From Amphiscolops sp. MND2022 (taxonomy: Eukaryota), in NCBI GenBank assembly GCA_964187785.1, contig OZ076409.1, forward strand, positions 74,340,001 through 74,404,000: 64,000 nucleotides of DNA, written 5' to 3'. The translations under genes and the position numbers were made by a program. Shown here one piece after another: positions 1 to 64,000 of this stretch (position 1 is its first letter; every line of letters begins with the position of its first letter). A model generated the notes under the pieces. That model was not told where the DNA came from, did not search any database, and saw only the letters and a list, made by a program, of their open reading frames with translations.

Positions 1-177
1 TAATCTGTCTGGATATGCAGAAAAACCAGCACGTGCTTTTTTATACCAAGTTGCTTACAACGACAATTATTTTATATCAACGCCCCCATATTTATCAACG
101 CCCCCCGTCCGTGGGCATGCCGAGGCATGCCCTTCGACGACGTATGCCAAAGATATTCCCGAGCGCGTTAGCCTAGG
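1..177 (+). mobile_element. Right end of a short unit (partial)
   Basis: Twin tcaacgcc at 77 and 95, palindrome 113-132, ends CTAGG 173-177. Confidence 0.8.
113..132. other. Right-end palindrome GGGCATGCC-GA-GGCATGCCC (representative copy)
   Basis: Perfect 9-bp inverted repeat, present in every complete unit except 58442-59514. Confidence 0.95.
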
Positions 178-1457
178 TGCCGGGATTTCTATTCGATAAA
201 GTAAGTTGCGCGGTTGGGTAGGGCCCCGTGAGCGCGCCCGTGTCTGTGTTTTTTGAACCTGAATTTGCGGGTGCCAAAATAGACGATCTCCTAAACTATC
301 CATACGATTTGGCTCAAATTTGGCATACGGGTTCCTGAGACAGATATAAGAACTAATTCCTACTGGCGTTTTGCCCGGAAAATTTTTTTTGTTGCGCAAA
401 CTTGAAATTTTTGACAAAAAAATGCGATTTTTTTTGAAAAATTTTTTTTGAGAGGCCATATCTTTTTTCAGGGAGCCCGGAGCGGGACGCGTTAAACTGA
501 TTATAAACTCTACGGTTCACGGGCTGTACGGGGAACCTATTTTTGTTGGAATCCGACTTGTAGATTTTGAGATATATCATCAAATTTGGGTGTTTTTTTT
601 CCAATATTTCGAAAAACCTGGTTTATCTCTGCCGTTTTTTGCCCAGATTTTTTTATAGACCCTCTCCTAAAGGCCTCCCCTGGCCAGATTACGTCCCAGC
701 AAAACCATTTGGCCCTAAATACGAAGTTTCAGCGTTCTAGCATTTTCGGGCGAAAAGTTGTGGGACTTAGAAAAAGTTTTTTTAAAACGCAAAATGTGTA
801 AAGTCAACTTCAGGCCTCCCAAAGTCAAGGAACTTCCACACAACTAGGATTGCAAGTGGATGCATGTGGAAAGTGCTTGATTAGACGAGGAAAATGAGCT
901 ATTATAAAACTCTGTAGCTTAACCTGACGTTGACTTATGACAATTTTAGTGTGAGCTTGCTATGTGAGAAAAAATTTCAAAAATTGAAAATCGAAGCTAA
1001 GTCTCATCCAAAACTCATCGGAATACGTTCAATCCATTCCAAAGCGGTTTACTTCCAGCTATAGACTGCAGCAACACTATTCAAGACCATTGTACCCCTT
1101 TATATTAGTTTTGACATTGTATTATTCATCCGAGAGCACAAAGCAGTTGAGTACATTCCATCTCCCTTTCGGGGGAGATGAGAATGTACTCGCTAAAGAA
1201 CAGGTACTACAGCCAATTTTTGTATTTATGCGAAGCCATTCTATGCTATTGCACATAACAACTATGCTATTGACTTAATTTTGCCTACACTTTGCTATGA
1301 CATATGCTAAACGTTTGGTCCTTACAACAACATACACATGACTAACGTCAACACCACATACTGTTACCAACGCCCACCGTCCGTGGGCATGCCGAGGCAT
1401 GCCCTTCGACGACGTATGCCAAATACCTTCCAGCGACGCTCGCGCTCCCCGGCTAGG
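178..1457 (+). mobile_element. Short unit, subtype A (1280 bp)
   Basis: Bounded by CTAGG|TG junctions; near-identical copies start at 12962, 31790 and 39459. Confidence 0.8.
1149..1191. other. Internal ~43-nt imperfect hairpin of short units (representative copy)
   Basis: GAGTACATT-C-CATCTCCC-TTTCG-GGGAGATG-AG-AATGTACTC; found ~270 nt before the right end of the short units. Confidence 0.92.
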
Positions 1458-2739
1458 TGCCGGTGTTTTTCACGACAAAGAAAGTTGCGCGCTTTGGGTA
1501 GGGTCCCGGCGCGCTTTTGGGGTTCATTTTAACAACCTGATCTCCCGTTGCACGTATGTCCGATTTTCCAAACTATCCTACCAATTTTGCTGAAATTTTG
1601 CATGTGGGTCCCTATGGACATTCTAAGAACAAATCCCTACTGGCGTTTTGCCCGGAAAATTTTTTTTCTTGACTTATTGACAATTTTAGGTGCCGAAAAT
1701 GACGTTTTTTCAAAAAAAAATTTTTTAAGAGCCCATATCTCGCTCCCAGGTGCCCGGAGCGGGTCGCATGTGGTCGTTGATATTGCTAGGCACTTCGTAA
1801 GGAGTCTGTAGACAAATTTTGGTTCAGATTGGATGAAAAATGATTGAGTAATAGCCGCAAATTGGACGCATTTTGTCAAATTTTTTCGAAACCCCAGTCT
1901 ATCTCTGCCGTTTTTTGCCCAGATTTTTTTCTAGACCCTCTCCTAAAGGCCTCCCCTGGCCGAATTACCTCCCAGCAAAACCATTTGGCCCTAAATACGA
2001 AGTTTCAGCGTTCTAGCATTCTCGGGCGAAAAGTTGTGGGACTTAGAAAAATTTTTTTGAAAACGCAAAATGTGTAAAGTCAACTTCAGGCCTCCCAAAG
2101 TCAAGGAACTTCCACACAACTAGTATTGCAAGTGAATGCATGTGGAAAGTACTCGGATAGACGAGAAAAATGAGCTATTATAAATCTCTGTAGCTTAACC
2201 TGACGTTGACTTATGACAATTTTAGTGTGAGCTTGCTATGTGAGAAAAAAATTCAAAATTGGAAATCGAAGCTAAGTCTCATCCAAAACTCATCGGAACA
2301 CGTTCAATCCATCCCAGAGCGGTTTAATTCCAGCTATATAATGCAGCAACACTATTCAAGACCATTTGATCCACTTACATTAGTTTTGACACCGTATTAT
2401 TCATCCGAGAGCACAAAACAGTTGAGTACATTCCATCTCCCTTTCGGGGGAGATGAGAATGTACTCGCTAAAGTCCAGGTACTACAGCCCATATTTGTTT
2501 TTATGCGACGCTTTTATGGTTTGTATGCTAGTGCGTACACGTATTAATCTTTTAACATATTTTTTGTCGTCTGCAGTTTGCTTTTGACTTGACATAAACT
2601 GAACGTTTTGTCCTTAAAACATACACATTACTAACGTCAACGCCCCATCCTTGCATCAACGCCCACCGTCCGTGGGCATGCCGAGGCATGCCCTTCGACG
2701 ACGTATACCAAGATATACATAAGCGCGGTAGCCGCTAGG
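1458..2739 (+). mobile_element. Short unit (1282 bp), head seen once
   Basis: CTAGG|TG at both ends; shared central block, internal hairpin and palindrome. Confidence 0.78.
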
Positions 2740-5296: not shown

Positions 5297-6584
5297 TGCC
5301 GGGATTTTCTATTCGACAAGTTTGCGCGCCTTGGGGAGGGTCCCTTTGCGCGCTTTAAGATCCAGGTGTTTCCAACTCCTAAACGGGCATGTGATTTCGA
5401 CGATCTCCTAAACTAGCCATACGATTTGGCTGAAATTTGGCACACGTACCCCCCTCGGCACGGTGAAGATGATTTCCTACTGACGTTTTTCCCGCTAAAC
5501 ATTTTTTGTTGACCAAAATAACGGTTTTTGGGGTAAAATTTTCAACTTTTTTTAAATTTCATCTTATATCTCGCCACGGGTACACGCTAGCGCTTCAAAA
5601 CCTTGCTGACGAAAGCTTGCAAACTGTCTCGGGAATGCGGTGTGAAATTTTCAGCTCAATCGGACTTAAACTCGAGGAGATATAGCGTTTTTCCGGAGCG
5701 GGGGGGTTTCATTTTTCTAACGGTCCAGCTTATCTTTGCCATTTTTTCGAAAATGTACTCGTCTAAAGGCCTCCCCTGGCCGGTTTTATTCCCAGCAAAA
5801 CCATTTGGCCCTAAATACGGAGTTTCAGCGTTCCAGCATTTCCGGGCGAAAAGTTGTGGGACTTAGAAATTTTCAAAAATTTTCAAAAATTTTTTTTTCC
5901 GTTATTTGGTCCCCCAAAGTGGGGGAAAAGACCCCCCAACCAGTAAAGCAAGTGAAAGCATGTGCAAAGCCCTTGTTTGGACGAGAAAATTGCCGTTTAG
6001 AACGTCTTTTTATCTTGGCTCAACGTTGACTTATGACGTTTTGAAGGTGATGTTTGGAGGTGTAAAGCAAGTGATTAGTAAACGTTATGAGTATTTATCT
6101 GATCTGAAAGCCATTGAGATGCAATATGGTTTGCTCAAAACGTAATTCATTGCAGTTTGGCAATCAATCAACACCCTTTGTTGTCGTTTGACATACTTTT
6201 TTGTTGTTATAATAAAAAATTTTGTGTATTTATTCATTTTTTTCTCATCAAATAACTTGGAACAGTTGATTACATTCCATCCCCCCCTTCCGGGGGAGAT
6301 GAGAATGTACTCGCAAAAAGCACCGAACTACGGCCCTTACCTTCCCGAGCTACGCAGTATAAGGATTACATATTGGTTCCGACATTTTCATAGAGTTATA
6401 TCTTGGTAATCTGTCTGGATATGCCGAAAAATCAGCACGTGCCTTTTAATACCAAGTTGCTCACAACGACAATTATTTTATATCAACGCCCCCATATTTA
6501 TCAACGCCCCCCGTCCGTGGGCATGCCGAGGCATGCCCTTCGACGACCCGCACCAAAATATGCGTTAGCGCGGTAGCAGCTAGG
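5297..6584 (+). mobile_element. Short unit, subtype B (1288 bp)
   Basis: Junction-bounded; B body marker cacgtacccccctcggcacggtgaag. Confidence 0.78.
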
Positions 6585-7847
6585 TGCCGGGATTTCCATT
6601 CGATAAGGAATTCTGCGCGTGTGGGTAGGGCCCCTGGCGCGCTCCTGTGTTTTCGGTTTTCCTACTCCAAATTCACACATCGGTTATCTCGGATCTCGAA
6701 AACTAGCCACACGATTTGGCTGAAATTTGGCACACAGCTCCGTTGGAACATTGTAAGAACAAATCCCTACTGACGTTTTGCCCGCTAAACATTTTTTGTT
6801 GGTCAAAAATGCGATTTTCCGACAAAATTTTTGACTTTTTTTTCTTTTTCAACTCATATCTCGCCACAGGGTCACGCTAGCGCTTTGCAACCTATGATCC
6901 TTTTTTGTAGGGCGTTGTCTGTAGAACACGTATGCCAAATTTGGTGGCGATCGGACTTAAACTCAGGGAGATATAACGATTTTTTAGGTGCATTTTTTGA
7001 CATTTTTTGCATTTGCTGATTTATCTTTGCCGTTTTTTGCCCAGATTTTTTTTGAGACACTCTCCTAAAGACCTCCCCTGGCCGGTTTACCTCCCAGCAA
7101 AACCATTTGGCCCTAAATACGAAGTTTCAGCGTTCTAGCATTCCCGGGCGAAAAGTTGTGGGACTTAGAATAATTTTTTGGAAACGCAAAATGTGTAAAG
7201 TCAACTTCAGGCCTCCCAAAGTCAAGAAACTTCCACACAACTAGTATTGCAAGTGGATGCATGTGGAAAGTACTGGGATAGACGAGAAAAATGAGCTATA
7301 GAACGACTCTGTAGCTTAACTTGACGTTGACTTATGATGTTTTGAGTGTGTGCTTGCCAAGAGGTCCGAAATTGAAAATTTTTAAAGAAAATTAATATCG
7401 TTAAAAATTCATCGGAATGCCTGCGATATACAGTAGAGCGTGTTCAATTGTAGCTGACTAATGCATCAACGCTGTTCAAGGTCTTTTAACTCAGTTTCAA
7501 ATTTTTTTACACTGTATTATCCATCCGAGAGTTCGAAACAGTTGAGTACATTCCATCTCCCTCCCGAGGGAGATGAGAATGTATTCGCTAAAGTCCAGAT
7601 ACCACGACCCATATTTGTTTCTCTGCGACGCAAACATTTGCTAGTGCACATAAATAGTGATCTTTTGACTGAATTCTGTATTTACACAGACGTGACATAT
7701 GCTGAATGTTCGGTTCTTACAACATACACATGACTAACGTCAACGCCACATACTGTTACCAACGCCCACCGTCCGTGGGCATGCCGAGGCATGCCCTTCG
7801 ACGACGTATGCCAAATACCCTTTACCGACGCGCACTCTCCCGCTAGG
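6585..7847 (+). mobile_element. Short unit, D-related mosaic (1263 bp)
   Basis: Junction-bounded; D-like left body, right half shared with the unit at 47970. Confidence 0.78.
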
Positions 7848-23275: not shown

Positions 23276-24543
23276 TGGCCGTGTCTTTTCGACGTGCTTT
23301 TGCATTGAGGAGTGGGTAGGGCCCCGCGACGACCTAGAAGAATTGGATGCTCACCGAAACGTGCAGAATTCTACGAGATCTCATAGTTTGAGCCATACGA
23401 TTTTTCTGAAATTTGGCATGTGGCCTGGAATTGGTGAGTAGGTAAAACGTGTAGGAGGTGATTTTTCCCAAATTCCACTGTGAGACGAGATATGGGCAAA
23501 TAACGGTCCCAAAAATGGCAAAAATGCACTTTTTTCAAGTTTGTCAGCCCATATCTCGTTCCCAGGTGCCCGGAGCGGGACGCGTTAAGCTGATTATAAA
23601 CTCTAGGGTGTTGAGGCTGTACGGGGAAGTCAGGCCCGTTCCGATCGGACTTGTAGTCTTGGAGAAATAACGGTATTTTTGGGGAACCTTTTCTAACGGT
23701 CCAGCTTATCTTTGCCATTTTTTCGAAAATGTACTCGCCTAAAGGCCTTCCCCTGGCCAAATTTACTCCCAGCAAAACCATTTGGCCCTAAATACGGAGT
23801 TTCAGCGTTCCAGCATTCCCGGGCGAAAAGTTGTGGGACTTGGAAAATTTTCAAAAATTTTCAAAAAATTTTTTTTTCGTTTTCCGGGCCCCCAATGAAG
23901 GGGAAACGACCCCCAACCAGTATTTTGAGTGAATTCATGTGGAAAGCCCTTGTTTAGACGAGAAAAATACCGTTTAGAACATCTTTTTATCTTGACTCAA
24001 CGTTGACTTATGACGTTTTGAATGTGATGTAAGGATGTAGGAGGCATGTGATAAGTTGATGTTTTGAGTCTTTATCTCATATGAAAGCGGTTGAGATGCA
24101 AGCTGTCCTGCTCAAAACGTCTTTCGTTGTAATTTTCCAGTGCACCAATACCCTTTGGTGTCATATAAACATACTTTTCGTCGATATATTAACAATTTTA
24201 ATGTATTTATTCCAATTTTTATTATCTTATAACTCAAAACAGTTGAGTACATTTCATCTCCCTTTCGGGGGAGATGAGAATGTACTCGCTAAAGACCTAG
24301 CGCCATGACCAAAAGTTTGAAACCCACGTTTTTTATCTTCTTACAGACTTGTTTTTGTATTTTTTCGGAATTTTTTAAAAATTAATATACTTGAAATACA
24401 TTACTTGACTTTACTACTACAATCCACCTCCAACGTCAACGCCCCCCTGCTTGCATCAACGCCCACCGTCCGTGGGCATGCCGAGGCATGCCCTTCGACG
24501 ACGTATGCCAAATGCCCAGTGCCACGCAGTCATTATCGCTAGG
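23276..24543 (+). mobile_element. Short unit, subtype F2 (1268 bp)
   Basis: Same head as F1, different body; copy at 60786. Confidence 0.78.
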
Positions 24544-26538
24544 TGCGGGGGGGTAACCCCAACTTTTTTCTTGGAGGAATCGGGTAGGGTCCTGATTCCG
24601 AGCTTAGTGCCGCCAGCTATCGTTAAAAACCCATACCTTTTAAACCCGATCTCGGGAACTAACCACGCCCCTTCTTTAATTTTTTGGCCCCCACTCACTT
24701 TTTGAGAGTAGATCGCCCCCCACTGGGTTCCAAGTTGGGCAAAAATGGAGGTCATGGGTAACGGGGACCGTTAAGGGGTAACTCAGGGGGTAAAATTTAT
24801 TTTTTGCGTCATATCTTTTCCCCCCGTGGATTTAGCGCTTCCGGTCAGCAGACAAAACCTCATGTACGTGATAAGGGGCCTCCGTAGGTCCAAACAAAAT
24901 TTTTCTATCATGCACCGTTACGGACTTGCCCCCCCGGCCCAACCGTTATTTTGCCGGAAATTGCCTTTTTTGACAGGGAAGGAGTCGTCTGAGCACGGAG
25001 TCGTTTGGTAATGTTTTGTAGTGCATCTGGAGACGTGTTGGGGGACATGTAGTTTGCCGACCCCAGTTTACCCCTCGGACGGGAAATGACCGTTATGTGA
25101 GTTTTAAAAATGCCCCCCTTCAATTTTCCCCGCAATTTCCGGTGTGAAGGAGTGGGAGTAGGGTGTCGGGTGCCATATATCAAAAGTAGGTTTAGACAAG
25201 GACCAACCGGAAACATGTGGTTTCGGACCCCCTGACCCAACCCGTTAGCCGCTATTAGGGTGATCGCCTCCTTTTTTTGCTGTTAAAACCGGAAAACGGG
25301 CATTGAGGGGTAAATATCTCGTGAACGCGTGGAGCAATCGTGTCCATCACTACTACAAGGTTTCATACCCATGATACGGTGCCTTCAGGGGGGCAAACAG
25401 ATTACCGCTATCTATCACCGTTACCGACTTGGCCCCCCAGCCTAACCGCTATGTGACCGGAAATTGCACTTTTTGAGCCCAAAGGGTCGATCCTAGCCGG
25501 GCAACGTTAGGTAACTTATTGTAGTACTCATTGAGACGAGTTGGGGGATCTAGTTTCAGTCACCCCCCGTTACCCCTTGAGACCGGAAATGACCGTTATG
25601 TGAGTAGAATTGCAATTTTTATACCTTTTGAAGGGCATTTAGGTGCGGAAGGAATGGTAATAGGTGCTTGGACACTATATGATGTAATGGAGGTCGTGAG
25701 GAGAGCATTCGGAAGTAACCGTTACGTTGACCCCAAAGTCCCCCTGGTACCGTTAACAACCGGAAATGGCCAGATTTTGTGTTTGTGGGGTACAAATGTT
25801 TGGTATTTTATAGATAAAAGTACCTGGAAGGTGTTTTAAAGGCCTCCAGAAGCGAACATAGTCATGAAACTTTGTGGGGGGTAACGGTATATAGCACCGG
25901 AAGTCCAAACCGTTAGTTACTGAATAGGTTTTTTGGTTTCAAAATGTCTTTAGGCGTAGTTTTGTGGGTTGAATCGTCATAATATCAACTAATACGGACT
26001 TTTTTCGGAAATAAAATTTTTTCACATTAGTTTCAGGGACCTCCAATGTTTCAGTCAACATAACCGTTACATTTTGATAGCCTTTCAAGTTGGCCTGGTG
26101 TCAACTTGGAAGGGCTATCCTTCTAAAATCGTTAATCAAGAGTGTTTTTGGGTAGGTATATGTTGCATTAGTACCAATTAGAGCTTCATCAACAGTTTGC
26201 CAACGGCAAAAACGATGTCGTGATAATTCCGTTATAAGAATATTAATTAACAAATTGTTTCTAAAGTTGATTTTTTCCATTCGAAATGTGTCCTAATGCG
26301 ACCAAATTGAATAAAATAATAAATGGTATTGACTAAAACTAAATAACAATGAAAAAGAAGATCAACATTTTTATTAGGTCTCATTATGGAAGCTGAAACC
26401 TCACGTTTTAACTTGATTAACGTCAACGCCACATACTTTACATCAACGCCCACCGTCTGTGGGCATGCCGAGGCATGCCCTTCGACGACGTATACCAAAC
26501 AACCTCCATATCTACACCCAATTGCGGTAGCAGCTAGG
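24544..26538 (+). mobile_element. Long unit (1995 bp)
   Basis: Same junctions, head loop and right-end block as short units but a different interior; relative at 51218. Confidence 0.8.
26076..26119. other. Internal ~44-nt imperfect hairpin of long units (representative copy)
   Basis: GATAGCC-TTTC-AAGTTG-GCCTGGTGT-CAACTT-GGAAG-GGCTATC; present in all 8 long units. Confidence 0.9.
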
Positions 26539-31789: not shown

Positions 31790-33069
31790 TGCCGGGATTT
31801 CTATTCGATAAAGTAAGTTGCGCGGTTGGGTAGGGCCCCGTGAGCGCGCCCGTGTCTGTGTTTTTTGAACCTGAATTTGCGGGTGCCAAAATAGACGATC
31901 TCCTAAACTATCCATACGATTTTGCTCAAATTTGGCATACGGGTTCCTGAGACAGATATAAGAACTAATTCCTACTGGCGTTTTGCCCGGAAAATTTTTT
32001 TTGTTGCGCAAACTTGAAATTTTTGACAAAAAAATGCGATTTTTTTTGAAAAATTTTTTTTGAGAGGCCATATCTTTTTTCAGGGAGCCCGGAGCGGGAC
32101 GCGTTAAACTGATTATAAACTCTACGGTTCACGGGCTGTACGGGGAACCTATTTTTGTTGGAATCCGACTTGTAGATTTTGAGATATATTATCAAATTTG
32201 GGTGTTTTTTCTCCAATTTTTCGAAAAACCTGGTTTATCTCTGCCGTTTTTTGCCCAGATTTTTTTCTAGACCCTCTCCTAAAGGCCTCCCCTGGCCGGA
32301 TTACGTCCCAGCAAAACCATTTGGCCCTAAATACGAAGTTTCAGCGTTCTAGCATTCTCGGGCGAAAAGTTGTGGGACTTAGAAAATTTTTTTTTAAAAC
32401 GCAAAATGTGTAAAGTCAACTTCAGGCCTCCCAAAGTCAAGGAACTTCCACACAACTAGGATTGCAAGTGGATGCATGTGGAAAGTGCTTGAATAGACGA
32501 GGAAAATGAGCTATTATAAAACTCTGTAGCTTAACCTGACGTTGACTTATGACAATTTTAGTGTGAGCTTGCTATGTGGGAAAAAATTTCAAAAATTGAA
32601 AATCGAAGCTAAGTCTCATCCAAAACTCATCGGAATACGTTCAATCCATTCCAAAGCGGTTTACTTCCAGCTTTAGACTGCAGCAACACTATTCAAGACC
32701 ATTGTACCCCTTTATATTAGTTTTGACATTGTATTATTCATCCGAGAGCACAAAGCAGTTGAGTACATTCCATCTCCCTTTCGGGGGAGATGAGAATGTA
32801 CTCGCTAAAGAACACGTACTACAGCCAATTTTTGTATTTATGCGAAGCCATTCTATGCTATTGCACATAACAACTATGCTATTGACTTAATTTTGCCTAC
32901 ACTTTGCTATGACATATGCTAAACGTTTGGTCCTTACAACAACATACACATGACTAACGTCAACACCACATACTGTTACCAACGCCCACCGTCCGTGGGC
33001 ATGCCGAGGCATGCCCTTCGACGACGTATGCCAAATACCTTCCAGCGACGCTCGCGCTTCCCGGCTAGG
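31790..33069 (+). mobile_element. Short unit, subtype A (1280 bp)
   Basis: Near-identical to 178-1457. Confidence 0.8.
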
Positions 33070-34180
33070 TGCCGGTATTTCTATTCGATAAAGTATGTGG
33101 CGCGTGTGGGTAGGGTCCCTGGCGCGCTCTTGGGTATGGTGTTCACCAGCTAGGAAATAGGGGTCGATTTTTCGGGATCTCCTAAACTAGCCACACGATT
33201 TGGCTGAAATTTGGCACACGTACTCCCCTCGGCATGGTGAAGATGATTTCCTACTGACGTTTTTCCCGCAAAATTTTTTTTGTTGTCCAAAATAACGGTT
33301 TTTGGGGTAAAATTTTGAATTTTTTTTAAATTTCATCTTATATCTCGCCACGGGTTTACGCTAGCGCTTCAAAACCCTGCTAAAGAAAGCTTGCAAACTG
33401 TCTCAGGAAGGCGGTGTGAAATTTTCAGCTCAATCGGACTTAAACTCAGGGAGATATAGCGTTTTTCCGGAGCGGGGGGGTTTCATTTTTCTAACGGTCC
33501 AGCTTATCTTAGCCATTTTTTTGAAAATTTACTCGCCTAAAGACCTCCCCTGGCCGGTTTTATTCCCAGCAAAACCATTTGGCCCTAAATACGGAGTTTC
33601 AGCGTTCCAGCATTCCCGGGCGAAAAGTTGTGGGACTTAGAAAATTTCAAAAATTTTCAAAAATTTTTTTTTCGGTTTTCCGCCCTCCCCCCCGAGGGGA
33701 AAAGACCCCCCAACCAGTAATTTGAGTGAATTCATGTGGAAAGGCCATGTTTAGAGGAGAAAAATCCCGTTTAAATCGTCTTTTTATCTTTATTCAACGT
33801 TGACTTATGACGTTTTGAAGGTGATGTTTGGAGGTGTAAAGCACGTGAAAAGTAAACGTTATGAGTATTTATCTGATCTGAAAGCCATTGAGATGCAACC
33901 TGTTTTGCTCAAAACGTAATTCATATCAGTTTGGCAATCAATCAACACCCTTTGTTGTCGTTTGACATCTTTTTTTGTTGTTATAATAAAAAATTTTGTG
34001 TATTTATTCATTTTTTTCTCATCAAATAACTTGAAACAGTTGAGTACATTCCATCCCCCCCTTCCGGGGGAGATGAGAATGTACTCGCAAAAAGCACCGA
34101 ACTACGGCCCTTACCTTCCCGAGCTACGCAGTATAAAGATTGCATATTGGTTCCGACATTTTCATAGAGTTAAATCTTGG
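33070..34180 (+). mobile_element. Left part (1111 bp) of an interrupted subtype B unit
   Basis: Stops at aatcttgg, where intact relatives continue taatctgt; the remainder is at 36718-36893. Confidence 0.85.
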
Positions 34181-35448
34181 TGCCGGGATTACTATTCGTT
34201 CGAGTATGTGGCGCGTGTGGGTAGGGCCCCTGGCGCGCTCTTTTATTTCGGGTACACCTACTCCAAATTCACGATGTGATTTCGACGATCTCGTAAACTA
34301 GCCACACGATTTGGCTGAAATTTGGCACACGTACCCCCCTCGGCACGGTGAAGATGATTCCCTACTGATGTTTTGCCCGCTAAACATTTTTTGTTGACCA
34401 AAATAACGGTTTTTGGGGGAAAATTTTGAACTTTTTTTAAATTTCGTCTTATATCTCGCCACGGGTTTACGCTAGCGCTTCAAAACCTTGCTAACGAAAG
34501 TTTGCAAACTGTCTCAGGAATGCGGTGTGAAAATTTCAGCCCAATCGGACTTAAACTCGAGGAGATATAGCGTTTTTCCGGAGTGGGGGGGTTTCATTTT
34601 TCTAACGGTCCAGCTTATCTTTGCCATTTTTTCGAAAATGCACTCGCCTAAAGGCCTCCCCTGGCCGGTTTTATTCCCAGCAAAACCATTTGGCCCTAAA
34701 TACGGAGTTTCAGCGTTCCAGCATTCCCGGGCGAAAAGTTGTGGGACTTAGAAAATTTCAAAATTTTTCAAAAAAATTTTTTCCGTTATTTGGGCCCCCA
34801 AAGTGGGGCAAAAGACCCCCCAACCAGTAAAGCAAGTGAATGCATGTGGAAAGCCCTTGTTTAGACGAGAAAATGGCGTTTAGAACGTTTTTTTATCGTA
34901 ACTTGACATTGACATTTGTCGTTTTGAAGGTGACCGTTAGATACGGAAAATTGATGTTTTGAGTGTTTATCCCATCTGAAAGCCATTGAGATACAACATG
35001 TTTTGCTCAAAACGTGTTTCATTGCAGTTTCGCTGTCCATTAACACCCTTTGGTGTCTTTTGACGTAATTTTTTTTTCTATAATAACAATTTCTTTGTGT
35101 ATTTATTCATTTTTTTCTCATCAAATAACTTGAAACAGTTGAGTACATTCCATCTCCCTTCCCGGGGGAGATGAGAATGTACTCGCTAAAGGTCAGGAAC
35201 TACGGTCTATATCTTCCACAACACAAAAGAGATTGCAAATTGTTTCAGTTTGTCGCAGAAAACTTCTTTTTGCACTCTGTGACTCGACAAAGTGAACGTT
35301 TCTTACTTACTTTGAATCTCACCATACCACAACTCATCTCTAACGTCAACGCCCCCCACACACATCAACGCCCCCCGTCCGTGGGCATGCCGAGGCATGC
35401 CCTTCGACGACGTATAGCAAAATATATTCGAACGCGGTAGCGGCTAGG
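34181..35448 (+). mobile_element. Nested short unit, copy 1 (1268 bp)
   Basis: Starts directly after CTTGG instead of CTAGG. Confidence 0.85.
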
Positions 35449-36717
35449 TGCCGGGATTACTATTCGTTCGAGTATGTGGCGCGTGTGGGTAGGGCCCCTG
35501 GCGCGCTCTTTTATTTCGGGTACACCTACTCCAAATTCACGATGTGATTTCGACGATCTCGTAAACTAGCCACACGATTTGGCTGAAATTTGGCACACGT
35601 ACCCCCCTCGGCACGGTGAAGATGATTCCCTACTGACGTTTTGCCCGCTAAACATTTTTTGTTGACCAAAATAACGGTTTTTGGGGGAAAATTTTGAACT
35701 TTTTTTAAATTTCGTCTTATATCTCGCCACGGGTTTACGCTAGCGCTTCAAAACCTTGCTAACGAAAGTTTGCAAACTGTCTCAGGAATGCGGTGTGAAA
35801 ATTTCAGCCCAATCGGACTTAAACTCGAGGAGATATAGCGTTTTTCCGGAGCGGGGGGGTTTCATTTTTCTAACGGTCCAGCTTATCTTTGCCATTTTTT
35901 CGAAAATGCACTCGCCTAAAGGCCTCCCCTGGCCGGTTTTATTCCCAGCAAAACCATTTGGCCCTAAATACGGAGTTTCAGCGTTCCAGCATTCCCGGGC
36001 GAAAAGTTGTGGGACTTAGAAAATTTCAAAAATTTTCAAAAAAATTTTTTCCGTTATTTGGGCCCCCAAAGTGGGGCAAAAGACCCCCCAACCAGTAAAG
36101 CAAGTGAATGCATGTGGAAAGCCCTTGTTTAGACGAGAAAAATGGCGTTTAGAACGTTTTTTTATCGTAACTTGACATTGACTTTTGTCGTTTTGAAGGT
36201 GACCGTTAGATACGGAAAATTGATGTTTTGAGTGTTTATCCCATCTGAAAGCCATTGAGATACAACATGTTTTGCTCAAAACGTGTTTCGTTGCAGTTTC
36301 GCTGTCCATTAACACCCTTTGGTGTCTTTTGACGTAATTTTTTTTTCTATAATAACAATTTCTTTGTGTATTTATTCATTTTTTTCTCATCAAATAACTT
36401 GAAACAGTTGAGTACATTCCATCTCCCTTCCCGGGGGAGATGAGAATGTACTCGCTAAAGGTCAGGAACTACGGTCTATATCTTCCACAACACAAAAGAG
36501 ATTGCAAATTGTTTCAATTTGTCGCAGAAAACTTCTTTTTGCACTCTGTGACTCGACAAAGTGAACGTTTCTTACTTACTTTGAATCTCACCATACCACA
36601 ACTCATCTCTAACGTCAACGCCCCCCACACACATCAACGCCCCCCGTCCGTGGGCATGCCGAGGCATGCCCTTCGACGACGTATAGCAAAATATATTCGA
36701 ATGCGGTAGCGGCTAGG
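35449..36717 (+). mobile_element. Nested short unit, copy 2 (1269 bp)
   Basis: Near-identical to 34181-35448; ends CTAGG followed by taatctgt of the host unit. Confidence 0.85.
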
Positions 36718-36893
36718 TAATCTGTTTGGGTATGCAGAAAAACCAGCACGTGCTTTTTTATACCAAGTTGCTTACAACGACAATTATTTTATATCAACGC
36801 CCCCATATTTATCAACGCCCCCCGTCCGTGGGCATGCCGAGGCATGCCCTTCGACGACGTATACCAAGATATGCGTTAACGCGTTAGCCTAGG
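36718..36893 (+). mobile_element. Right part (176 bp) of the interrupted unit starting at 33070
   Basis: 1111+176=1287 bp, matching intact relatives (1288-1289 bp). Confidence 0.85.
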
Positions 36894-42709: not shown

Positions 42710-44684
42710 TGCGGGGGGGAAACCCCAACAAAATTTTTGGAGGATTCGGGTAGGGTCCTGAATCCGAGTTCAGTGCTGCCAGCTTTCGTTAAGAAAATTT
42801 GGATAGGATTCGGGATCTCGTGATCTAACCATAGGATTTCAAAGTTGGAGCGGCCCCCACCAGATTTTCCGAAAATTAGCGCCCCCCACCGGGTTCCATA
42901 CCCCGGAAAATTTTTTTCTGGCCACACGGGCGACCGTTAGGGGGTCATTTTAGGGGTAAAATTCATATTGGGCCACATAACTTTTTTCCTGTTGGTTTAA
43001 AACTTTGGGACCCTGCTAAAAGTTTCTTGACCGTGTTGCAGGGGCCCCGGAGGTCCAAACCAAAATTTTCTATCTTGAAGCTATCTCCAAGTACCCCCCC
43101 GCCCAAAACGTTATTTTTCCGGAAACGCAGGTTTTTGACCCGGAAGGAGTCGTCGGAGCGCGGGGTCGTTAGGTGATGTATTGGGGACGGCCTTGAGACG
43201 AAGCGGGGGACATGCAGTTTGCCAACCCCAGTTTACCCCCCGGACGGGAAATGACCGTTATATGAGCGGGAAAAATGCCCCCTTCCACGTTTTACCGCTA
43301 TTTTCGGTGTGAAGGAGTGGAAGTAGCGCGTCGGGTGCCATATATCAAAAGTAGGTTTAGACAAGGACCTATCGGAAACATGTGGTTTGGGACCCCCTGG
43401 ACCAACCCGTTAGCGGGAAATGGGGCTTCCGCCTCCTTTTTTTACTGCTAAAACAGTAAAATGGGCATTGAGGGGTAAATATCTCGTGAACGCGTGGAGC
43501 TACGGTGTCCATCACTACTACAAGGTTTCATACCCATGATATGGTGCCTTCAGGGGGGCAAACAGATTTCCGCTATCTATCACCGTTACTGACTTGGCCC
43601 CCCAGCCTAACCGCTATGTGACCGGAAATGTCACTTTTTGAGCCCAAAGGGTCGGTCCCAGCCAGGGAACGTTAGGTAACTTATTGTAGTACTCATTGAG
43701 ATGAGTTGGGGGACATAGTTTCAGTCACCCCCCGTTACCCCTTAGGACCGGAAATGACCGTTATGTGAGTAAAATTGCCATTTTTGTCCTATTTGAAGGG
43801 CATTTAGATGCGGAAGGAGCGGTAATAGGTGCTTGGACACTATATGATGATAGGGAGGACGTGAGGCGAGCTTTCGGAATTAACCGTTATGTTGACCCCA
43901 AAGTCCCCCTGGTACCGGAAGTGACCCGTTATGGTCAAATTTTGTGTTTAAAGTGTACAAATGTTTGGTGTTTTTTGGATAACAGTACCTATTAGGTGTT
44001 TCGACGGTCTGCAGTCGTGAACATAGTCATGAAACCTTGTGGGGGGTAAAGGTATATAGCACCGGAAGTCCAAACCGTTGGAGACAGGATAAGTTTTTTG
44101 GTTTTAAAATGTCTTTCGGCCTACTTTTGTTGACTATTATGGACTATTTTTGAAAAATAAATTTTTTCCAAATAGTTTCAGAGACTCCGAAAACTCAACC
44201 AACATAACCGTTACCTTATGATAGCCTTTCAAGTTGGCCTGGTGTCAACTTGGAAGGGCTATCCTTCAAAAATCATTAATCAAGTGTAATTTTGAGTATG
44301 TTTGTATTACTTTAGAATCAATTAGAGCTTCAAGAAAAGTTTGCCAACGATAAAAACTATGTCGTGATGATTCCTTTATTAGAATAATAGTTAACAAAAT
44401 ATTGATAAAGTTGATTTTTTACACTTTAAATGTGTTCTAAATGCCAGAAAACCTCTTTACCAAACAAATGGAATTGATTGAATTGTATATAACAGCTAAT
44501 AAAACTTCAAATTGAATATTAGGTTTCATTATGGAAGCTGAAACGTCAAATTATAGTTTAATTAACGTCAACGCCACATACTTTACATCAACGCCCACCG
44601 TCCGTAGGCATGCCGAGGCATGCCTTTCGACGATGTATACCAAATTCCATCCACACAACACCCCCGAGCGCGGTAGCAGCTAGG
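42710..44684 (+). mobile_element. Long unit (1975 bp)
   Basis: Junction-bounded; carries the A:T palindrome variant at 44606-44625. Confidence 0.8.
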
Positions 44685-44715
44685 TGCGGGGGGGTAACCC
44701 CAACTTTTTTCTTGG
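44685..44715 (+). mobile_element. 31-bp stub of a long-unit head ending at CTTGG
   Basis: tgcgggggggtaaccccaacttttttcttgg matches the heads at 24544 and 51218, which continue aggaatcggg. Confidence 0.85.
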
Positions 44716-54502: not shown

Positions 54503-55777
54503 TGCCGGTGTTTTCTTCACTTTTGAGGAAGTTGCGCGTGTGGGTAGGGCCCCTGGCGCGCTCCGTTGTCCCTGTGTTTACATCTTAGAAAATTTGAGTA
54601 AAAAAATGGGATCTCGAAAACTGGCCACACGATTTGGCTGAAATTTTGCATACGGCTCCCTATGACAGTTGTAAGAACTAATCCCTAGTGGCGTTTTGCC
54701 CGGAAAATTTTTTTTGTTGACTTATTCACATTTTTAGGGTCAAAAAATGGCGTTTTTTTGAAAATTTTTTTTTTCAGAGACAATTACTCGAAACTGGTGC
54801 ACCCAGCGCAGTAACGCCTAGCTGATTTATTGTTGGGCATTTCATGAGGAGTCCGTATACAAATTTTCGTCCAAATCGGATAAAAAATGATTGAGAAATA
54901 ACTGAAAATTTGAGGAATTTTTTGGGAAATTTTCGAAAACCCAGTCTATCTCTGCCGTTTTTTGCCCAGATTTTTTTTGAGACACTCTCCTAAAGACCTC
55001 CCCTGGCCGGTTTTCCTCCCAGCAAAACCATTTGGCCCTAAATACGAAGTTTCAGCGTTCTAGCATTCCCGGGCGAAAAGTTGTGGGACTTAGAAGAATT
55101 TTTTGGAAACGCAAAATTTGTAAAGTCAACTTCAGGCCTCCCAAAGTCAAGGAACTTCCACACAACTAGTATTGCAAGTGAATGCATGTGGAAAGTACTC
55201 GGATAGACGAGAAAAATGAGCTATAGAAAGACTCTGTAGCTCAACCTGACGTTGACTTATGATGTTTTGAATGTGTGCTTGCTAAGGGGTCCGAAACTGA
55301 AAATTTTTAAAGAAAATTAATATCGTCAAAAATTCATCGGAATGCCTGCAATATACAGTAGAGCGTGTTCAATTGTAGCTGATTAATGCATCAACGCCGT
55401 TCAAGGTCTTTTAACTCAGTTTCAAAATTTTGTACACTGTATTATTCATCCGAGAGCACAAAACAGTTGAGTACATTCCATCTCCCCTCCGTGGGAGATG
55501 AGAATGTACTCGCTAAAGTCCAGGTGCTACAGCCCATATTTGTTTTTTTGCGGCGCTATTTATGCTAGTGCGCATACTTTTTAATCGTTTAACTGAATTT
55601 TCTTCTGTCTGCACTTTGACTTTGACTTGACATATAGTGAACGTTTTGTCTTACAACTTACAAATGAGTAACGTCAACGCCCCATCCTTGCATCAACGCC
55701 CACCGTCCGTGGGCATGCCGAGGCATGCCCTTCGACGACGTATGCCAAGATATATCCCAAGCGCGGTAGCAGCTAGG
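54503..55777 (+). mobile_element. Short unit, C-related mosaic (1275 bp)
   Basis: Head as 47970, tail as 4028 and 7848. Confidence 0.78.
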
Positions 55778-57166
55778 TGGTTGGGGCGGTCCCCAGAACG
55801 CACAAGGAGGCGCGGGGAGGGTCCTGCGCCGACGTAGAATAATTTCATATAATACTAGTATCCTACATGGGTGTTTTAGAGGCGATTTTGGAATCTAACC
55901 GTAGGATTTGGATAATTTTTTGCATGCGGCCATAACTCGAAATTCTAAGAACTTTTTCCTACTGTCATTTTCCCCGCAAATTGTTTTTTGTTGACTTACG
56001 GCCGAAAAACCGGAAATAACGTCCTTTTTAGACGTTATATCCGAAGTGTCGTCATAACTTTTTTCCAGGGCATGCTAGCGTTCTCGTTCACTTTTACACT
56101 TAGTTGCAGCATCTCAAAATACAACTGGTGGAAAGTTTTGGTTGCATTCGGATCACCCCCCACCGAGATAGAAGGGTTCCCCCCTCCAGTTTTACCCCCC
56201 AAATTTGCAAAATAGCCAATTTTGAGCATGAAGCCGAGGATTTAGCGTACCCGCTCCCTCCTGATGTTTTGTTGTACGTATTGGGGTCAATCTGACGACA
56301 TGTGTGGTTTTCACCCCCAACCCCCCCTTGGACCGGAAATGACACTTTTTTGTGTTTTTTGGCAGAATTTAGCCTTTTTCATTATTAGGCAGTCGTTTTA
56401 GGGACTCCTAGCAGGATATCGAAATTGAAATACAACCTGATCACAACCCAGTGACAATATGTTGGCCACTTGGAGGTATCATCATGACCGGAAGTGCGGT
56501 CAACCCCCCTTTTTGTGACCGCTTTTTGACCTTGTGCACCAAAATGCCAACATCTTGAGGCCTAATGAGGCATTCAAATCTGTACAAAGATAAAATGTTA
56601 GACAACCGAAGTCCCGGAAGATCTTTAGCATATACCGGAAGTTACCCCCCATGACCGGAAGTTACCCAATGTGACCGGAAATGGTCCAAAAATTAATGTA
56701 AAGTTGAATTTTTCACTATTTCAAGACCACTTAATTGAAACTTTTCAATCTCAAAACTAGCCTACTGGCTTGTTTTGCTGAATTTATGGAAATTGATGAG
56801 CTCTATCGCCCCCGATAGCCTTCGAAGTTGACCTTGCGTCAACTTTGGAGGCTATCGATAAAGAAAAATGAACAACAAAGTACATTGTTGCTCTCGTTTT
56901 TTTCCCGTTGTTTTTCCTCAAACATTCTTGAGACATATACATGGCCGTTAGTTGAAATCAATTTTTAGCCCATGTTATAGCTGGAGCAGCGAAGCGTTAC
57001 ACAGACTAGTGTGGTTTTGAAATTACATTATTTAAATTAACAACTGACCGTCTTAGTCAACTCCACACATTCATACCAACGCCCACCGTCTGTGGGCATG
57101 CCGAGGCATGCCCTTCGACGACGTATGACGAATCCACTCCAACGACACCCGCAGTCCTCAGCTAGG
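55778..57166 (+). mobile_element. Divergent unit, third family (1389 bp)
   Basis: Unique interior; keeps the head loop GAGGGT, a long-type hairpin at 56813-56857, the palindrome block and CTAGG. Confidence 0.78.
56634..56686 (+). repeat. Three ~20-bp tandem copies of ACCGGAA(G/A)T motif
   Basis: accggaagttaccccccatg accggaagttacccaatgtg accggaaatggtcc. Confidence 0.75.
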
Positions 57167-58441
57167 TGGCCGGGAACTTTTTTTCCTGCATTTTTCTGTC
57201 CAATTGGGGGAGGGGCCCCAAGTGGCTGTTATCCGGTTTTACTACCTACCCTAAACACGCTCAAAAAATGACGATCTCGAAAACCACCCCTTAGATTTTC
57301 CTGAAACTTTGCATACAGGCTTAGAATCAAATCCTAAGAACTATTTCCTACTGGCGTTTTTCTGAATTTTTTCAAAAAGTTGGTCAAAAATGCAACAAAA
57401 GTTGCCAATGGACATAAAAAACGCAACTTTTCGACTTTGAGGGCTCATAACTTTTCCCAGAGTGCCCGGAGCAATTCGCACAGTAAGAACAATATTGCTC
57501 AGCATTGTTGGAGGAGTGCGTGGACAAATTTGGGGTTGAATTGGATGAAAATTGACTGAGAAATAAACGAAAATTTTGGTGCATTTGTTGCAAATACCAG
57601 TTTATCTCTGCCATTTTCGCCCAAAATTTTTCCCAGAGCCTTTACAGGAGGCAACCCCTGCCCAAATTTCTGCCGAGCAAACCCATTTGGCCCTACATAC
57701 GAGGTTTCAGCGTTCTAGCATTTCCTGGCAAAAAGTTGTGGGACTCAGAAAAATTTCAAAAAAAACGCAAAAATTGTAAAAATTAACTTCTGGCGTCCCA
57801 AAGTCAAAAAACTTTCACACAACTAGTATTGCAAGTGAATGCATGTGGAAAGTACTTGCATAGACGAGAAAAATGAGCTATAGAACGACTCTGTAGCTTA
57901 ATCTGACGTTGACTTATGACATTTTGAGTGTGAGCTTCCTATAGGATTTTAATGTCAAAAATGAGATTTTGTAAGTCATGTCTAATCAAAAACTCATCGG
58001 AATACGTTCAATCATCCCCATAGCTGTTCAATTACAGTGGCTCAGTAGAGCAACGCCATTTAATGTCCTTGGACCCATTTTGAAAATTTTCCTTACCGTC
58101 TTATTCGTCCGATATCACGAAACAGTTGAGTACATTCCATCTCCCCCCTTGTGGGGGAGATGAGAATGTACTCGCCAAAGACCTGATACAGTGGCCCATA
58201 TTGAGTTTTATTTGACTTTTCTCACGATATTGCACACGGATAGCTGTGTTTGGTAAAAGTTTTCCTTTGCACAATGTCTCCAGAAGCTAAACCACTTCTT
58301 TAGCTTACACTTCTACTCAAACATCACCAACGTCAACGCAACATACTCGCATCAACGCCCACCGTCCGTGGGCATGCCGAGGCATGCCCTTCGACGACGT
58401 ATGCCAAATAGCGCCACCTGGCGCCCCCAATTTCCGCTAGG
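57167..58441 (+). mobile_element. Diverged short unit (1275 bp)
   Basis: Short-type layout with many substitutions; hairpin and palindrome intact. Confidence 0.78.
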
Positions 58442-59514
58442 TGGTCAAGGGGGATGCCCATCAGAAAATATTGCGAGGCCGGGGAGGGTCCCGAGAGCCG
58501 AGCACATTCTATCAATTCCTACCTTCAGGATTGCGAAGTATTTTAACCGATCTCGAAATTCACCCGTAGGATTTGTCTGAAACTTTGCATGTGGCTTTAT
58601 CTCAAAAATTTAAGAATTTTTTTCTGCTGACGTTTTTCCAGGAAAATTCATTTTGTAGGGTTTTTTTGGGTTTTTTTGGTTTTTTTTCATCTTTTTTCAT
58701 CTTTGATTAATCAATGACCGAATCAAAGGCCATTTTCACCATGAAGGAAAGCCCGTAGCGGCAAAGTGCACTTTTATGAAAATCATCAACGGTCAACGGT
58801 CTTTCGAACGGTCCGAAAAAATTCCCCCCCGGGGGAAACCAAAGTGCCGAAAAGTGCCAAAATTATTTTTTTGACTGAATCAATTTGATCAAATTGATGA
58901 TTTGAGCAGCCGGAACGGTCCGCACGGTCTCGGACAATAAGGTCAAAAATTGTCAGCATCCAATGGGGGTTCCAAAAATGTAATTCGTTCACCTGTAGGA
59001 GACATCAGAAAAAAGTTGATTTTTTGGGGTATATGTCATTATGAGTGATTGGATGAGAAATAATGGTATCACTTTCAGTTGGATATGATGCAGCACAGGA
59101 AGCAGCTGCAGCAAACTTGAAACTGATTATGGGGCTGGGGTTTACCCTCTGTATCGAGCAAAATATCCCTTGGGCAAAAGGTATGCCAAAAAGTGCCTCA
59201 AAGTGCTAATTAAGTTGTTGCAAATCGGCTAGCAAAATTCCTTTGTCACCGGTGTTCCGTGAGTTGCGCAGCATCTCGCGGGAACAACGGTGCTTGTTTC
59301 GAACGCAAAACCCAACATACCTCTTTGGTGACGTGACGGAGGTCACCATTGGCCTTTTTCGGCAGTGTGATGATATTTTTAATGTTGAATTGTGAACAAC
59401 ATACACAAAAGATTTAGCGTGGGATATTTGTTTGTGTCATACTTCAGTAACAAACTTTCAACCGTTTTGTTTAGGCCTCTACCTAGCAGTGCTCTAAATC
59501 GCTCCATCGCTAGG
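58442..59514 (+). mobile_element. Divergent unit, fourth family, without the palindrome block (1073 bp)
   Basis: Family-type head (ggggagggtccc; gatctcgaaa...gatttgtctgaaactttgca), unique body, ends exactly at GCTAGG. Confidence 0.72.
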
Positions 59515-62053: not shown

Positions 62054-63331
62054 TGGCCGTGTCTTTTCGACGTGCTTTTGCATTGAGGAGTGGGTAGGGC
62101 CCCGCGACGACCTAGAAGAATTGGATGCTCACCGAAACGTGCAGAATTCTACGAGATCTCATAGTTTGAGCCATACGATTTTTCTGAAATTTGGCATGTG
62201 GCCTGGAATTGGTGAGTAGGTAAAACGTGTAGAAGGTAATTTTTCCCAAATTCCACTGTGAGAGGAGATATGGGCAAATAACGGACCCAAAAATGGGGAA
62301 AATGCACTTTTTTCAAGTTTGTCAGCCAATATCTCATTTCCAGGTGCCCGTAGCGTTCCGCACGTGGACGTCAATATTGCTCAGCGCTGTTGGAGGAGTG
62401 CGTGGACAAATTTTGGTTCAAATCGGACTTAAACTTGACGAGAAATTAACGGTTTTTTGGGCGTTTCCGGGGTAAATTTTTTAACGGTCCAGCTTATCTT
62501 TGCCATTTTTTCGAAAATGTACATGCCTAAAGGCCTCCCCCTGGCCGAATTTACTCCCAGCAAACCCATTTGGCCCTAAATACGGAGTTTCAGCGTTCCA
62601 GCATTCCGGGGCGGAAAGTTGTGGGACTTGGAAAAATTTCAAAATTTTTTCAAAAATTTTTTTTCCCGTTTTCCGGGCCCCCAATGAAGGGGAACGACCC
62701 CCCAACCAGTATTTTGAGTGAATTCATGTGGAACGCCCATGTTTGGAGGAGAAAAATGCCGTTTAGCACATCTTTTTATCTTAACTTGACATTGACTTAT
62801 GACGTTTTGAATGTGATGTTAGGATATATGAAGCATGTTAAAAGTTGAAGTTTTGAGTTTTTATCTCATCGGAAAACCATTGAGATACAAGAAGTTTTGC
62901 TAAAAACGATTTTCATTGTAAGTTAGCAGAGTATTAGTACACTTTGATGTCATTTGAGTATTTTTTTCTATATAATAACTGTTTTTATGTATTTATTCCA
63001 ATTTATCTCATCTTTTAACATCAAGCAGTTGAGTACATTTCATCTCCCTTTCGGGGGAGATGAGAATGTACTCGCTAAAAACCTAATGCTATGGCGCCAA
63101 TGTTTGGATGGGAAGTTTTCTATGCTTTGAAAAAAGTTATTTTTAATTACTTGATTTTTTAAAACAATAATTAACATGAAGTACATTACTTGCTCCTACT
63201 ACTACCACCATACATCTCTAACGTCAACGCCCCCTGCTTGCATCAACGCCCACCGTCCGTGGGCATGCCGAGGCATGCCCTTCGACGACGTATGCCAAAT
63301 ACCATATGCCACGCAGTCTTTTCCCGCTAGG
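62054..63331 (+). mobile_element. Short unit, subtype F1 (1278 bp)
   Basis: Copy of 21993-23275 with a variant tail. Confidence 0.78.
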
Positions 63332-64000
63332 TGCCGGGATTTCTATTCGTTCGAGTATGTGGCGCGTGTGGGTAGGGCCCCTGGCGCGCTCTTTTATTTC
63401 GGGTACACCTACTCCAAATTCACGATGTGATTTCGACGATCTCGTAAACTAGCCACACGATTTGGCTGAAATTTGGCACACGTACCCCCCTCGGCACGGT
63501 GAAGATGATTCCCTACTGACGTTTTGCTCGCTAAACATTTTTTGTTGACCAAAATAACGGTTTTTGGGGTAAAATTTTCAACTTTTTTTAAATTTCATCT
63601 TATATCTCGCCACGGGTACACGCTAGCGCTTCCACACCTTGCTGACGAAAGTTTGCAAACTGTCTCAGGAATGCTGTGTGAAATTTTCAGCTCAATCGGA
63701 CTTAAACTCGAGGAGATATAGCGTTTTTCCGGAGCGGGGGGGTTTCATTTTTCTAACGGTCCAGCTTATCTTTGCCATTTTTTCAAAAATGCACTCGCCT
63801 AAAGGCCTCCCCTGGCCGGTTTTATTCCCAGCAAAACCATTTGGCCCTAAATACGGAGTTTCAGCGTTCCAGCATTCCTGGGCGAAAAGTTGTGGGACTT
63901 AGAAAATTTCAAAAATTTTCAAAAAAATTTTTTTCCGTTATTTGGGCCCCCAAAGTGGGGGAAAAGACCCCCCAAGCAGTAAAGCAAGTGAATGCATGTG
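63332..64000 (+). mobile_element. Short unit, subtype B (partial, runs off the window)
   Basis: Starts after CTAGG; head as 11688. Confidence 0.75.

Follow-up and report, generated by a model that had tools for sequence, protein, structure and literature searches.

Single-orientation arrays of predicted Helitron-like elements that may use their own junction as a target in Amphiscolops sp.

Described systems and how the locus compares

Helitron-like elements (HLEs) have been divided into two groups, HLE1 and HLE2, in a source that also gives DUF6570 as a marker and includes an HLE2 family with a GIY-YIG domain, HelenSM92 (PMC11417382). We analyse here a 64,000-nucleotide stretch of the genome of Amphiscolops sp. 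MND2022 (contig OZ076409.1), called the window (G000:C1:74340001-74404000; G000 is the genome, C1, C2, C3 and C12 are contigs, and L-numbers are fetched genome loci). The window is composed of short units, fused head to tail and in one orientation at an exact CTAG|GTG junction. We consider it probable that these units are non-autonomous Helitron-like elements, mobilised in trans by the Rep-helicase fusion protein (RepHel, or RepHel-GIY-YIG) of units of about 12 kb, and that their junctions are self-targeted.

Similarities and differences are both found with the described groups. As in HLE1 (Helraiser, PDB 7lcc), the family has a RepHel fusion, a hairpin upstream of a 3' CTAG (CTRR), insertion without target duplication and a set of non-autonomous derivatives. 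HLE1 elements begin with TC and use an A|T target, whereas here the 5' end is GTG and the target CTNG|DT, the hairpin of the array units lies 40-60 nt from the end, and the RepHel falls outside the HLE1 clade. A large RepHel with extra domains and a reversible orientation of the open reading frame (ORF), seen here in L180, are shared with HLE2 as described for Helentron, Helitron2 and FoHeli, but neither the asymmetric terminal inverted repeat nor the T|T target of that group is found here, and the RepHel is on a separate branch (PMC11417382, PMC5148889). A third clade, outside HLE1 and HLE2, has been published for Paramecium, with proteins of 3,052-3,592 aa, an absolute orientation bias and an end tetramer, CCAA, matching the proposed telomeric-repeat target; a tetramer-like target is likewise found here (PMC13085455). 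According to the main text of that source, which mentions no GIY-YIG, the Paramecium elements are flanked by telomeric repeats and not fused to each other, whereas ours end in CTAG and use mixed genomic targets (PMC13085455). Despite these described differences, the new clade and the Paramecium one may be a single clade. The same source reports the 'Mosaic' satellite of Paramecium, with units of about 44 nt in apparently random order (PMC13085455).

The target of our elements is reminiscent of that of the IS91 family, whose tetranucleotide targets (CTTG, GTTC, CTCG, GTCC) have T in second position and resemble the terminal cleavage tetramer (10.1101/2025.01.24.634351). A Y2 HUH enzyme, the absence of target duplication, a fixed orientation and an ori-ter circle junction (predicted here) are also shared; IS91 differs in being prokaryotic, and the sections of this source that we cite do not describe long self-arrays (10.1101/2025.01.24.634351). 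CTTG, CTCG and GTCC all occur as targets in Amphiscolops. The IS91 transposase, a small prokaryotic Y2 protein, is not known to carry a fused helicase, whereas the array family has a 2,350-aa RepHel with one. Like our elements, replitrons are HUH transposons of eukaryotes and end in short direct repeats (PMC10288648). The apparent 6-bp direct repeat of the array elements consists of the target plus the terminus, and a replitron identity was rejected, as replitrons are described with a Y1 Rep and an oligomerisation domain but no helicase, versus a Y2 RepHel here (PMC10288648). A tyrosine recombinase or Crypton, prompted by the same apparent repeat, was dropped because the frames found inside the element ends encode RepHel. 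The genome contains 7 matches to PF00589 and 24 to PF12012, at loci that were not compared with the element termini. One Crypton-like locus, G000:C3:2081195-2086792 (L030-L032, L111-L113), carries a 1,055-aa frame and three tandem DUF3504/tyrosine-recombinase matches spaced by 993 bp.

Large Helitron arrays with interspersed autonomous copies are known from plant centromeres and from centromeric regions of Meloidogyne; in the parts of these accounts cited here, they are concatemers or HLE1 elements between satellite blocks, and are not described as random heteropolymers fused at an exact target (PMC11934779, PMC13404089). The initial annotation of the window had likened the array to an integron. 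In an integron, a tyrosine recombinase inserts cassettes one at a time and in fixed orientation at a single attI entry site, which is regenerated. Growth cassette by cassette is retained in our interpretation and the tyrosine recombinase is not: any junction appears usable, and the probable mobiliser is a HUH rolling-circle RepHel, an enzyme type that the annotation had listed among its candidates (HUH/Rep) and that is closer to TrwC. The HUH relaxase TrwC is reported to catalyse origin-to-origin integration into oriT, also one at a time, with the site regenerated and the orientation fixed (PMC3264647). In a literature search that left Repbase, Dfam and most subscription journals outside its scope, no description was found of these ends and target or of junction-targeted, heteropolymeric Helitron arrays.

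Units, junctions and targets

The sequence CTAGGTG is found 45 times on the + strand of the window and 0 times on the - strand, versus about 1.5 per strand expected from Markov simulation, in agreement with the initial count of about 45 units fused in one orientation. The 44 intervals between the 45 junctions measure 1,073-2,379 bp and form groups of 1.28, 1.98, 1.39 and 1.07 kb. All units lie on one strand and have the layout GTG, hairpin, CTAG, the joint being CTAG|GTG. The features on which the analysis is based are as follows.

1..64000, + strand: head-to-tail array of predicted non-autonomous Helitron-like elements, part of a far longer array that also has a single orientation.
173..179, + strand: first of the 45 CTAG|GTG junctions, where the 3' terminal tetramer of a unit meets the 5' end of the following one; its sequence is that of the predicted circle junction.
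177..226, + strand: left-terminal (head) motif, made of GTG, 40-odd variable bases and a GGGTAGGGCCC-type box.
177..1456, + strand: 1.28-kb unit of subtype A, with further copies at 12961-14240, 31789-33068 and 39458-40737.
1369..1456, + strand: right-terminal sequence, made of a conserved block, a subtype-specific stretch and the terminal CTAG (1453-1456); the conserved tail block contains an 8-bp GC-rich hairpin at 1385-1404, and the hairpin ends 40-60 nt from the 3' end.

Three arrays, totalling 137 units, were ordered: that of the window with 40 kb of flanks, one at C1:70.6 Mb and one at C1:3.5 Mb. The initial annotation had recognised at least four families with unrelated interiors. This holds for the interiors, the median mutual BLAST coverage between the four size groups being 0-7%, and not for the ends, since the tail hairpin block is common to 134 of the 137 units and the head motif, at position 1, to 132. 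The lack of a terminal inverted repeat is borne out, as head-tail complementarity reaches 7-10 of 14 matches at best, a value equal to that of shuffled heads. The window is, as had been proposed, non-coding by ORF length (longest stop-to-stop frame of 168 aa) and without any Rfam match at the gathering threshold; Tandem Repeats Finder reports only five short arrays in it.

Both the ends of the elements and their target can be deduced from copies that lie outside junctions. In the genome, 92 matches to tails are not followed by a head (47 CTAG|GT[ACT], 40 CTAG|H and 5 CTAG|GV), in lists that hold a few nested, mutated-junction or false matches and come from search patterns that were not identical. 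The 40 CTAG|H ends, counted by hand, comprise 19 AT, 13 TT and 8 others. Free 3' ends reading CTAG|AT and CTAG|TT indicate that the element ends in CTAG and that the next two bases belong to the target, so that the junction, correctly described as exact, is cut as CTAG|GTG and not in the CTAGG|TG register that had been assigned to it. GTG starts all solo and first-in-array copies. On the left side, a hand tally of 22 flanks (two of them re-registered by one base, and three unclear ones excluded) gives CTNG in 17 cases, 6 of them being CTAG itself, and a T as the second base in every one of the 22; CCAG stands in one additional flank.

Empty sites point to the same target. Within the window, a nested insertion occupies an internal CTTG|GT site, of which 6 sister units from the same stretch have an uninterrupted version, and paralogous empty sites with a single target each were found for CTAG|GT (L078), CTAG|GA (L108) and a TTTA|GT repeat (L084), the last of which also fits L096 by eye. 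Neither these empty-site comparisons nor the left and right flanks, which are unlike each other, reveal any target-site duplication. Insertion thus leaves no duplication and takes place at a loose CTNG|DT target, between a CTAG-like tetramer on the 5' side and [GAT]T on the 3' side. Between the solo copies of C3 and C12 and array copies of C1, identity is 98.6-99.0%. As separate observations, three independent insertions (L073, L087 and L108) share one position in a satellite family that has a target-like hexamer in its monomer, and L039 (G000:C1:72444504) shows a rare switch of orientation, with an element end inserted in the head of another element that runs the opposite way.

Splitting the array at its junctions and comparing neighbour order with a random model had been proposed as a check, and in the three arrays the order matches shuffles, without higher-order periodicity. 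The four subtype A copies, at 177, 12961, 31789 and 39458, share 98.9-99.5% identity and are each followed by a different unit, as first noticed. More generally, none of the 42 within-array pairs of at least 98% identity has its next neighbour in common, and the adjacency of like units equals that of 1,000 shuffles at three thresholds. When 54 pairs are considered, including cross-array ones, exact identity stops at a median of 5 nt to the left and 8 nt to the right of the junction. Each unit keeps its own variable stretch between tail block and CTAG, which places the exchange at the junction and not in the common tail block. All these results show that the single unit is the mobile entity, and the initial proposal of discrete elements that regenerate their target is sustained by the solo copies and empty sites, by the loss of identity precisely at the junctions and by the random order.

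The other units of the window are the following.

24543..26537, + strand: 1.98-kb family unit; others start at 27826, 29818, 40738, 42709, 45994, 49242 and 51217.
33069..36892, + strand: 1.28-kb host unit split by a nested two-unit insertion (34180-35447 and 35448-36716); the 2,379- and 1,445-bp intervals are this one host unit, cut in two.
44684..44714, + strand: 5' stub of 31 bp from a 1.98-kb unit, with CTTG as its last bases and a whole 1.28-kb unit directly after it; no remainder of its element was found in the 104 kb of array searched.
55777..57165, + strand: 1.39-kb family unit.
58441..59513, + strand: 1.07-kb family unit, with head motif and terminal CTAG and without the common tail block, in place of which another short hairpin is predicted.
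1149..1191, + strand: long internal hairpin (z -7.8), whose motif is present in 55 of the 137 units.

Hairpins of the 1149-1191 type are common to several families, and one 4.76-kb unit contains two copies. A family of about 3.07 kb (L071, L093 and L095), which starts with GTG, ends with CTGG and lacks the common tail block, is fused into the same arrays.

The autonomous unit and its RepHel

A genome search for solo copies and for longer, ORF-bearing units had also been suggested, and both were found. A 12,016-bp unit (C1:74326874-74338889) lies in the same array, 1.1 kb upstream of the window, with CTAG|GTG on both sides. It carries the common tail and an intact 2,350-aa HUH-Y2 Rep–PIF1 frame, with Pfam matches to PF14214 (E 4.5e-8) and PF05970 (E 1.3e-7) and the Rep motifs FLTLTCN, EFQ…GNLPHIH and YIAKY. 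Autonomous units with the same ends as the array units therefore encode RepHel. One unit of the window is related to it.

6584..7846, + strand: unit 6, a non-autonomous relative of the 12,016-bp unit; its first 786 bp are 95% identical to it, and the tail is in common.

Other copies extend this result. When 11 free tails were extended upstream, 7 of them showed broken RepHel-like frames on the same strand, as judged by eye from motifs. A genome search with one of the broken frames gave 150 scored matches, about 69 of which, by hand count, lie in open frames of more than 2,100 aa. Two other RepHel subtypes adjoin array junctions, on both sides at C2:57.83 Mb and downstream only at C1:74.94 Mb. 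A C-terminal GIY-YIG domain is detected in 17 of the 18 relatives scanned, and an OTU domain in some relatives. The predicted model of the Rep region (mean predicted local distance difference test score 57.7) has Helraiser 7lcc as its best structural match (Z 12.9, root-mean-square deviation 5.0 over 220 residues), the second best reaching Z 7.5. Some autonomous subtypes have a second, Cys-containing gene downstream of RepHel (L085:4122-4875; L084, L091 and L104), which matches no Pfam family and shows a weak pairwise match (E 0.025) to the gene beside P0168 in L179.

The presence of an HUH-Y2 Rep and PIF1 inside the ends, the absence of duplication and the subterminal 3' hairpin (134 of 137 units) are characteristic of the Helitron-like superfamily. 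The family had been presented as unrecognised: it belongs to a known superfamily, and what is new is the clade, the ends and target, and the self-targeting, not the element class. To place the RepHel, trees were built with the HLE1 of this genome (7lcc, E 1.7e-113) and its homologues and with HLE2-type proteins, most of which contain DUF6570 (Rep, 21 new, 17 HLE2 and 19 HLE1 rows; helicase, 21, 13 and 6; rows without recognisable motifs dropped). The 17 Rep and 13 helicase references of HLE2 may not cover all four HLE2 subgroups. In both the Rep and helicase trees, which are unrooted and one of which carries a long-branch warning, the new group forms one side of a branch with a Shimodaira–Hasegawa-like approximate likelihood ratio test value of 100, under LG+G4 as well as a mixture model. 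On average this group is about 18% identical to HLE1 or HLE2 in Rep and in helicase, the value for HLE1 against HLE2 being 23-26%. The HUH motif was matched in all but 57 of 176 clade proteins; 118 of the remaining 119 have 6-9 residues from E.Q to PH.H, versus 4 in 16 of 16 HLE2 and 4-5 in 100 of 101 HLE1. Furthermore, phmmer finds no match at E<=1 between the family RepHel and 7lcc, against 1.7e-113 for the HLE1 of the same genome, and neither DUF6570, found in 16 of 20 HLE2 references, nor an AP endonuclease appears in the Pfam results of the 2,350-aa copy, the 18 scanned relatives and 29 precomputed ones. Judged from their sequences, the elements form a divergent Helitron-like clade, apart from the sampled HLE1 and HLE2. 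Ordinary HLE1 and HLE2-type Helitrons are also present in this genome, where three lineages consequently coexist.

Relatives appear to be widespread. A profile search returned 350 clusters at 50% identity with E<=1e-30; the larger set of 1,915 at E<=0.001 probably contains other Helitrons too. An ESM Atlas search returned generic PF14214 clusters only. HELIANO left unclassified elements in 19 genomes (PMC11417382), and these could already include the new clade. No related locus was found in viral contigs, nor for P0099 in metagenome contigs, and two were found for P0168. In a distant metagenome relative, a head motif match lies near the contig end, on the strand opposite to the ORF; this post hoc match, missed with a spacer of 22-48 and obtained after relaxing it to 15-48, has a pattern that occurs in 4 of 1,000 simulations.

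Origin of the arrays

The genome contains 4,628 tail+CTAG|GTG junctions and 92 free-end matches, which means that a head directly follows about 98% of 3' ends. The supply of other targets is large, about 1.1 million CTAG|DT and 5 million CTNG|DT sites when extrapolated from 320 kb of fetched loci, some junctions included. The window itself contains 169 internal CTNG|DT sites (48 of them CTAG|DT), only one of which is clearly used, versus 45 junctions. Taken together with the 98% of ends found at junctions, this shows that a preference for the hexamer is insufficient. One head subtype has 94 of the first 100 of its 187 matches on the + strand of C1:70.8-75.9 Mb, and the 36 RepHel matches counted by hand in C1:70.5-76.5 Mb are all on the + strand, which indicates that the array region is megabases long, whether or not it is continuous throughout. 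RepHel frames are concentrated in a few genome regions. More clusters of intact frames are found near contig ends (G000:C2:102.0-103.9 Mb; C3:2.4-3.9 Mb). In L017-L018 (G000:C1:70687500-70697600), an array edge adjoins single-copy-looking sequence, with a frame that we take to resemble UTP23, followed by a 200-N gap and another array. In L072 (G000:C1:82966901-82984900), a tandem repeat of about 985 bp lies directly upstream of a free tail and may be a satellite inside the element.

A mechanism can be proposed by analogy with Helraiser and IS91. RepHel would nick tetramer|GTG at the head while its helicase peels off one strand, and a second nick at CTAG, after the tail hairpin, would close a circle with the junction CTAG|GTG. 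The circle could then be joined to a target by the same transesterification. Because an array junction has the same sequence as the circle origin, complete tail and head included, it would be by far the best-bound target. Origin-to-origin strand exchange, as for TrwC at oriT, would turn one junction into two, with a fixed orientation and a random order, and rare insertion at a bare genomic CTNG|DT would seed a new array. The self-targeting step, as we infer it, is well supported by the genomic pattern.

Other explanations were considered. The same elements and enzyme could have a hexamer preference only, their clustering resulting from regional targeting, by chromatin or local hopping, and from purifying selection elsewhere. 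We regard this as unlikely, though the best of the alternatives: the family composition varies between arrays (1.28-kb units prevail in the window and 1.98-kb units in the array at C1:70.6 Mb), which suggests local sourcing, and RepHel frames do cluster, but the internal sites outnumber the junctions of the window almost without being used, no unit is inverted, and 19 cross-array pairs of at least 97% identity put near-identical units in distant arrays. Less likely still, blocks of rolling-circle concatemers or of terminator read-through products could have been inserted and later scrambled, as proposed for plant centromere Helitrons, whose tandem arrays are attributed to concatemers by PMC11934779, citing earlier work. 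One shared dimer and one run of like units would fit this origin. Concatemers would nevertheless give identical neighbours, while adjacent near-identical units number 1, 2 and 0 in the three arrays, as in shuffles, and neighbours often belong to unrelated families.

A Helitron-derived satellite, now spread by gene conversion or by unequal crossover within the common tail block, would account for the megabase scale and for mosaic subtypes with internal breakpoints. It is very improbable, as exchange points map to a 7-bp junction, too short for homologous recombination, periodicity and co-duplicated neighbours are lacking, and solo copies have clean empty sites; this reading is largely refuted for the 137 units sampled. 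An assembly artefact chaining dispersed repeats is hardly credible, given joins that share 7 bp only, individually distinct units, nested insertions, clean array edges and a 104-Mb contig.

Several points weigh against junction self-targeting by a RepHel-GIY-YIG, or limit it. The evidence is the genomic pattern of one assembly, with transposition, circles and haplotype polymorphism not among the observations, and the neighbour-order tests cover 137 of about 4,600 units. Most of the left flanks tallied were picked via right ends reading GT, and the targets TTTA, TTTT, GTCC and CCAG fit poorly. The GIY-YIG of the 2,350-aa copy is alignable but not detected at E<=1 in Pfam. One of the 54 pairs is a dimer common to two arrays at 98-99%, and a small array contains a run of four 1.07-kb units, of which three are 97-98% alike. 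Finally, 102 pairs are at least 98% identical over the 5' 300 nt but less than 90% at the 3' end, and 20 are alike at the 3' end only, versus 37 alike at both ends; such mosaics indicate that internal recombination or template switching shaped the subtypes.

On balance, we lean, by a modest margin over doubt, towards an undescribed and widespread major RepHel-GIY-YIG clade that has kept or re-evolved a target logic of the IS91 type and lands at its own origin junction, building multi-megabase, single-orientation random polymers of whole elements. Such elements would provide a route from transposon to megabase tandem array without unequal crossover, for which a random and not a periodic order is predicted, and a deep Helitron branch with IS91-like ends and target would bear on the old question of Helitron origin. 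Since the ends and the junction are defined and about 69 RepHel frames look intact, the system should be easy to test directly. If the proposal is true, it would represent a natural HUH site-specific integrase carrying 1-12 kb into a eukaryotic chromosome without duplication, of interest to genome engineers. For Amphiscolops, it would be a transposon limiting harm by inserting into itself, and the array may be both a self-made safe harbour and a natural record of insertion history.

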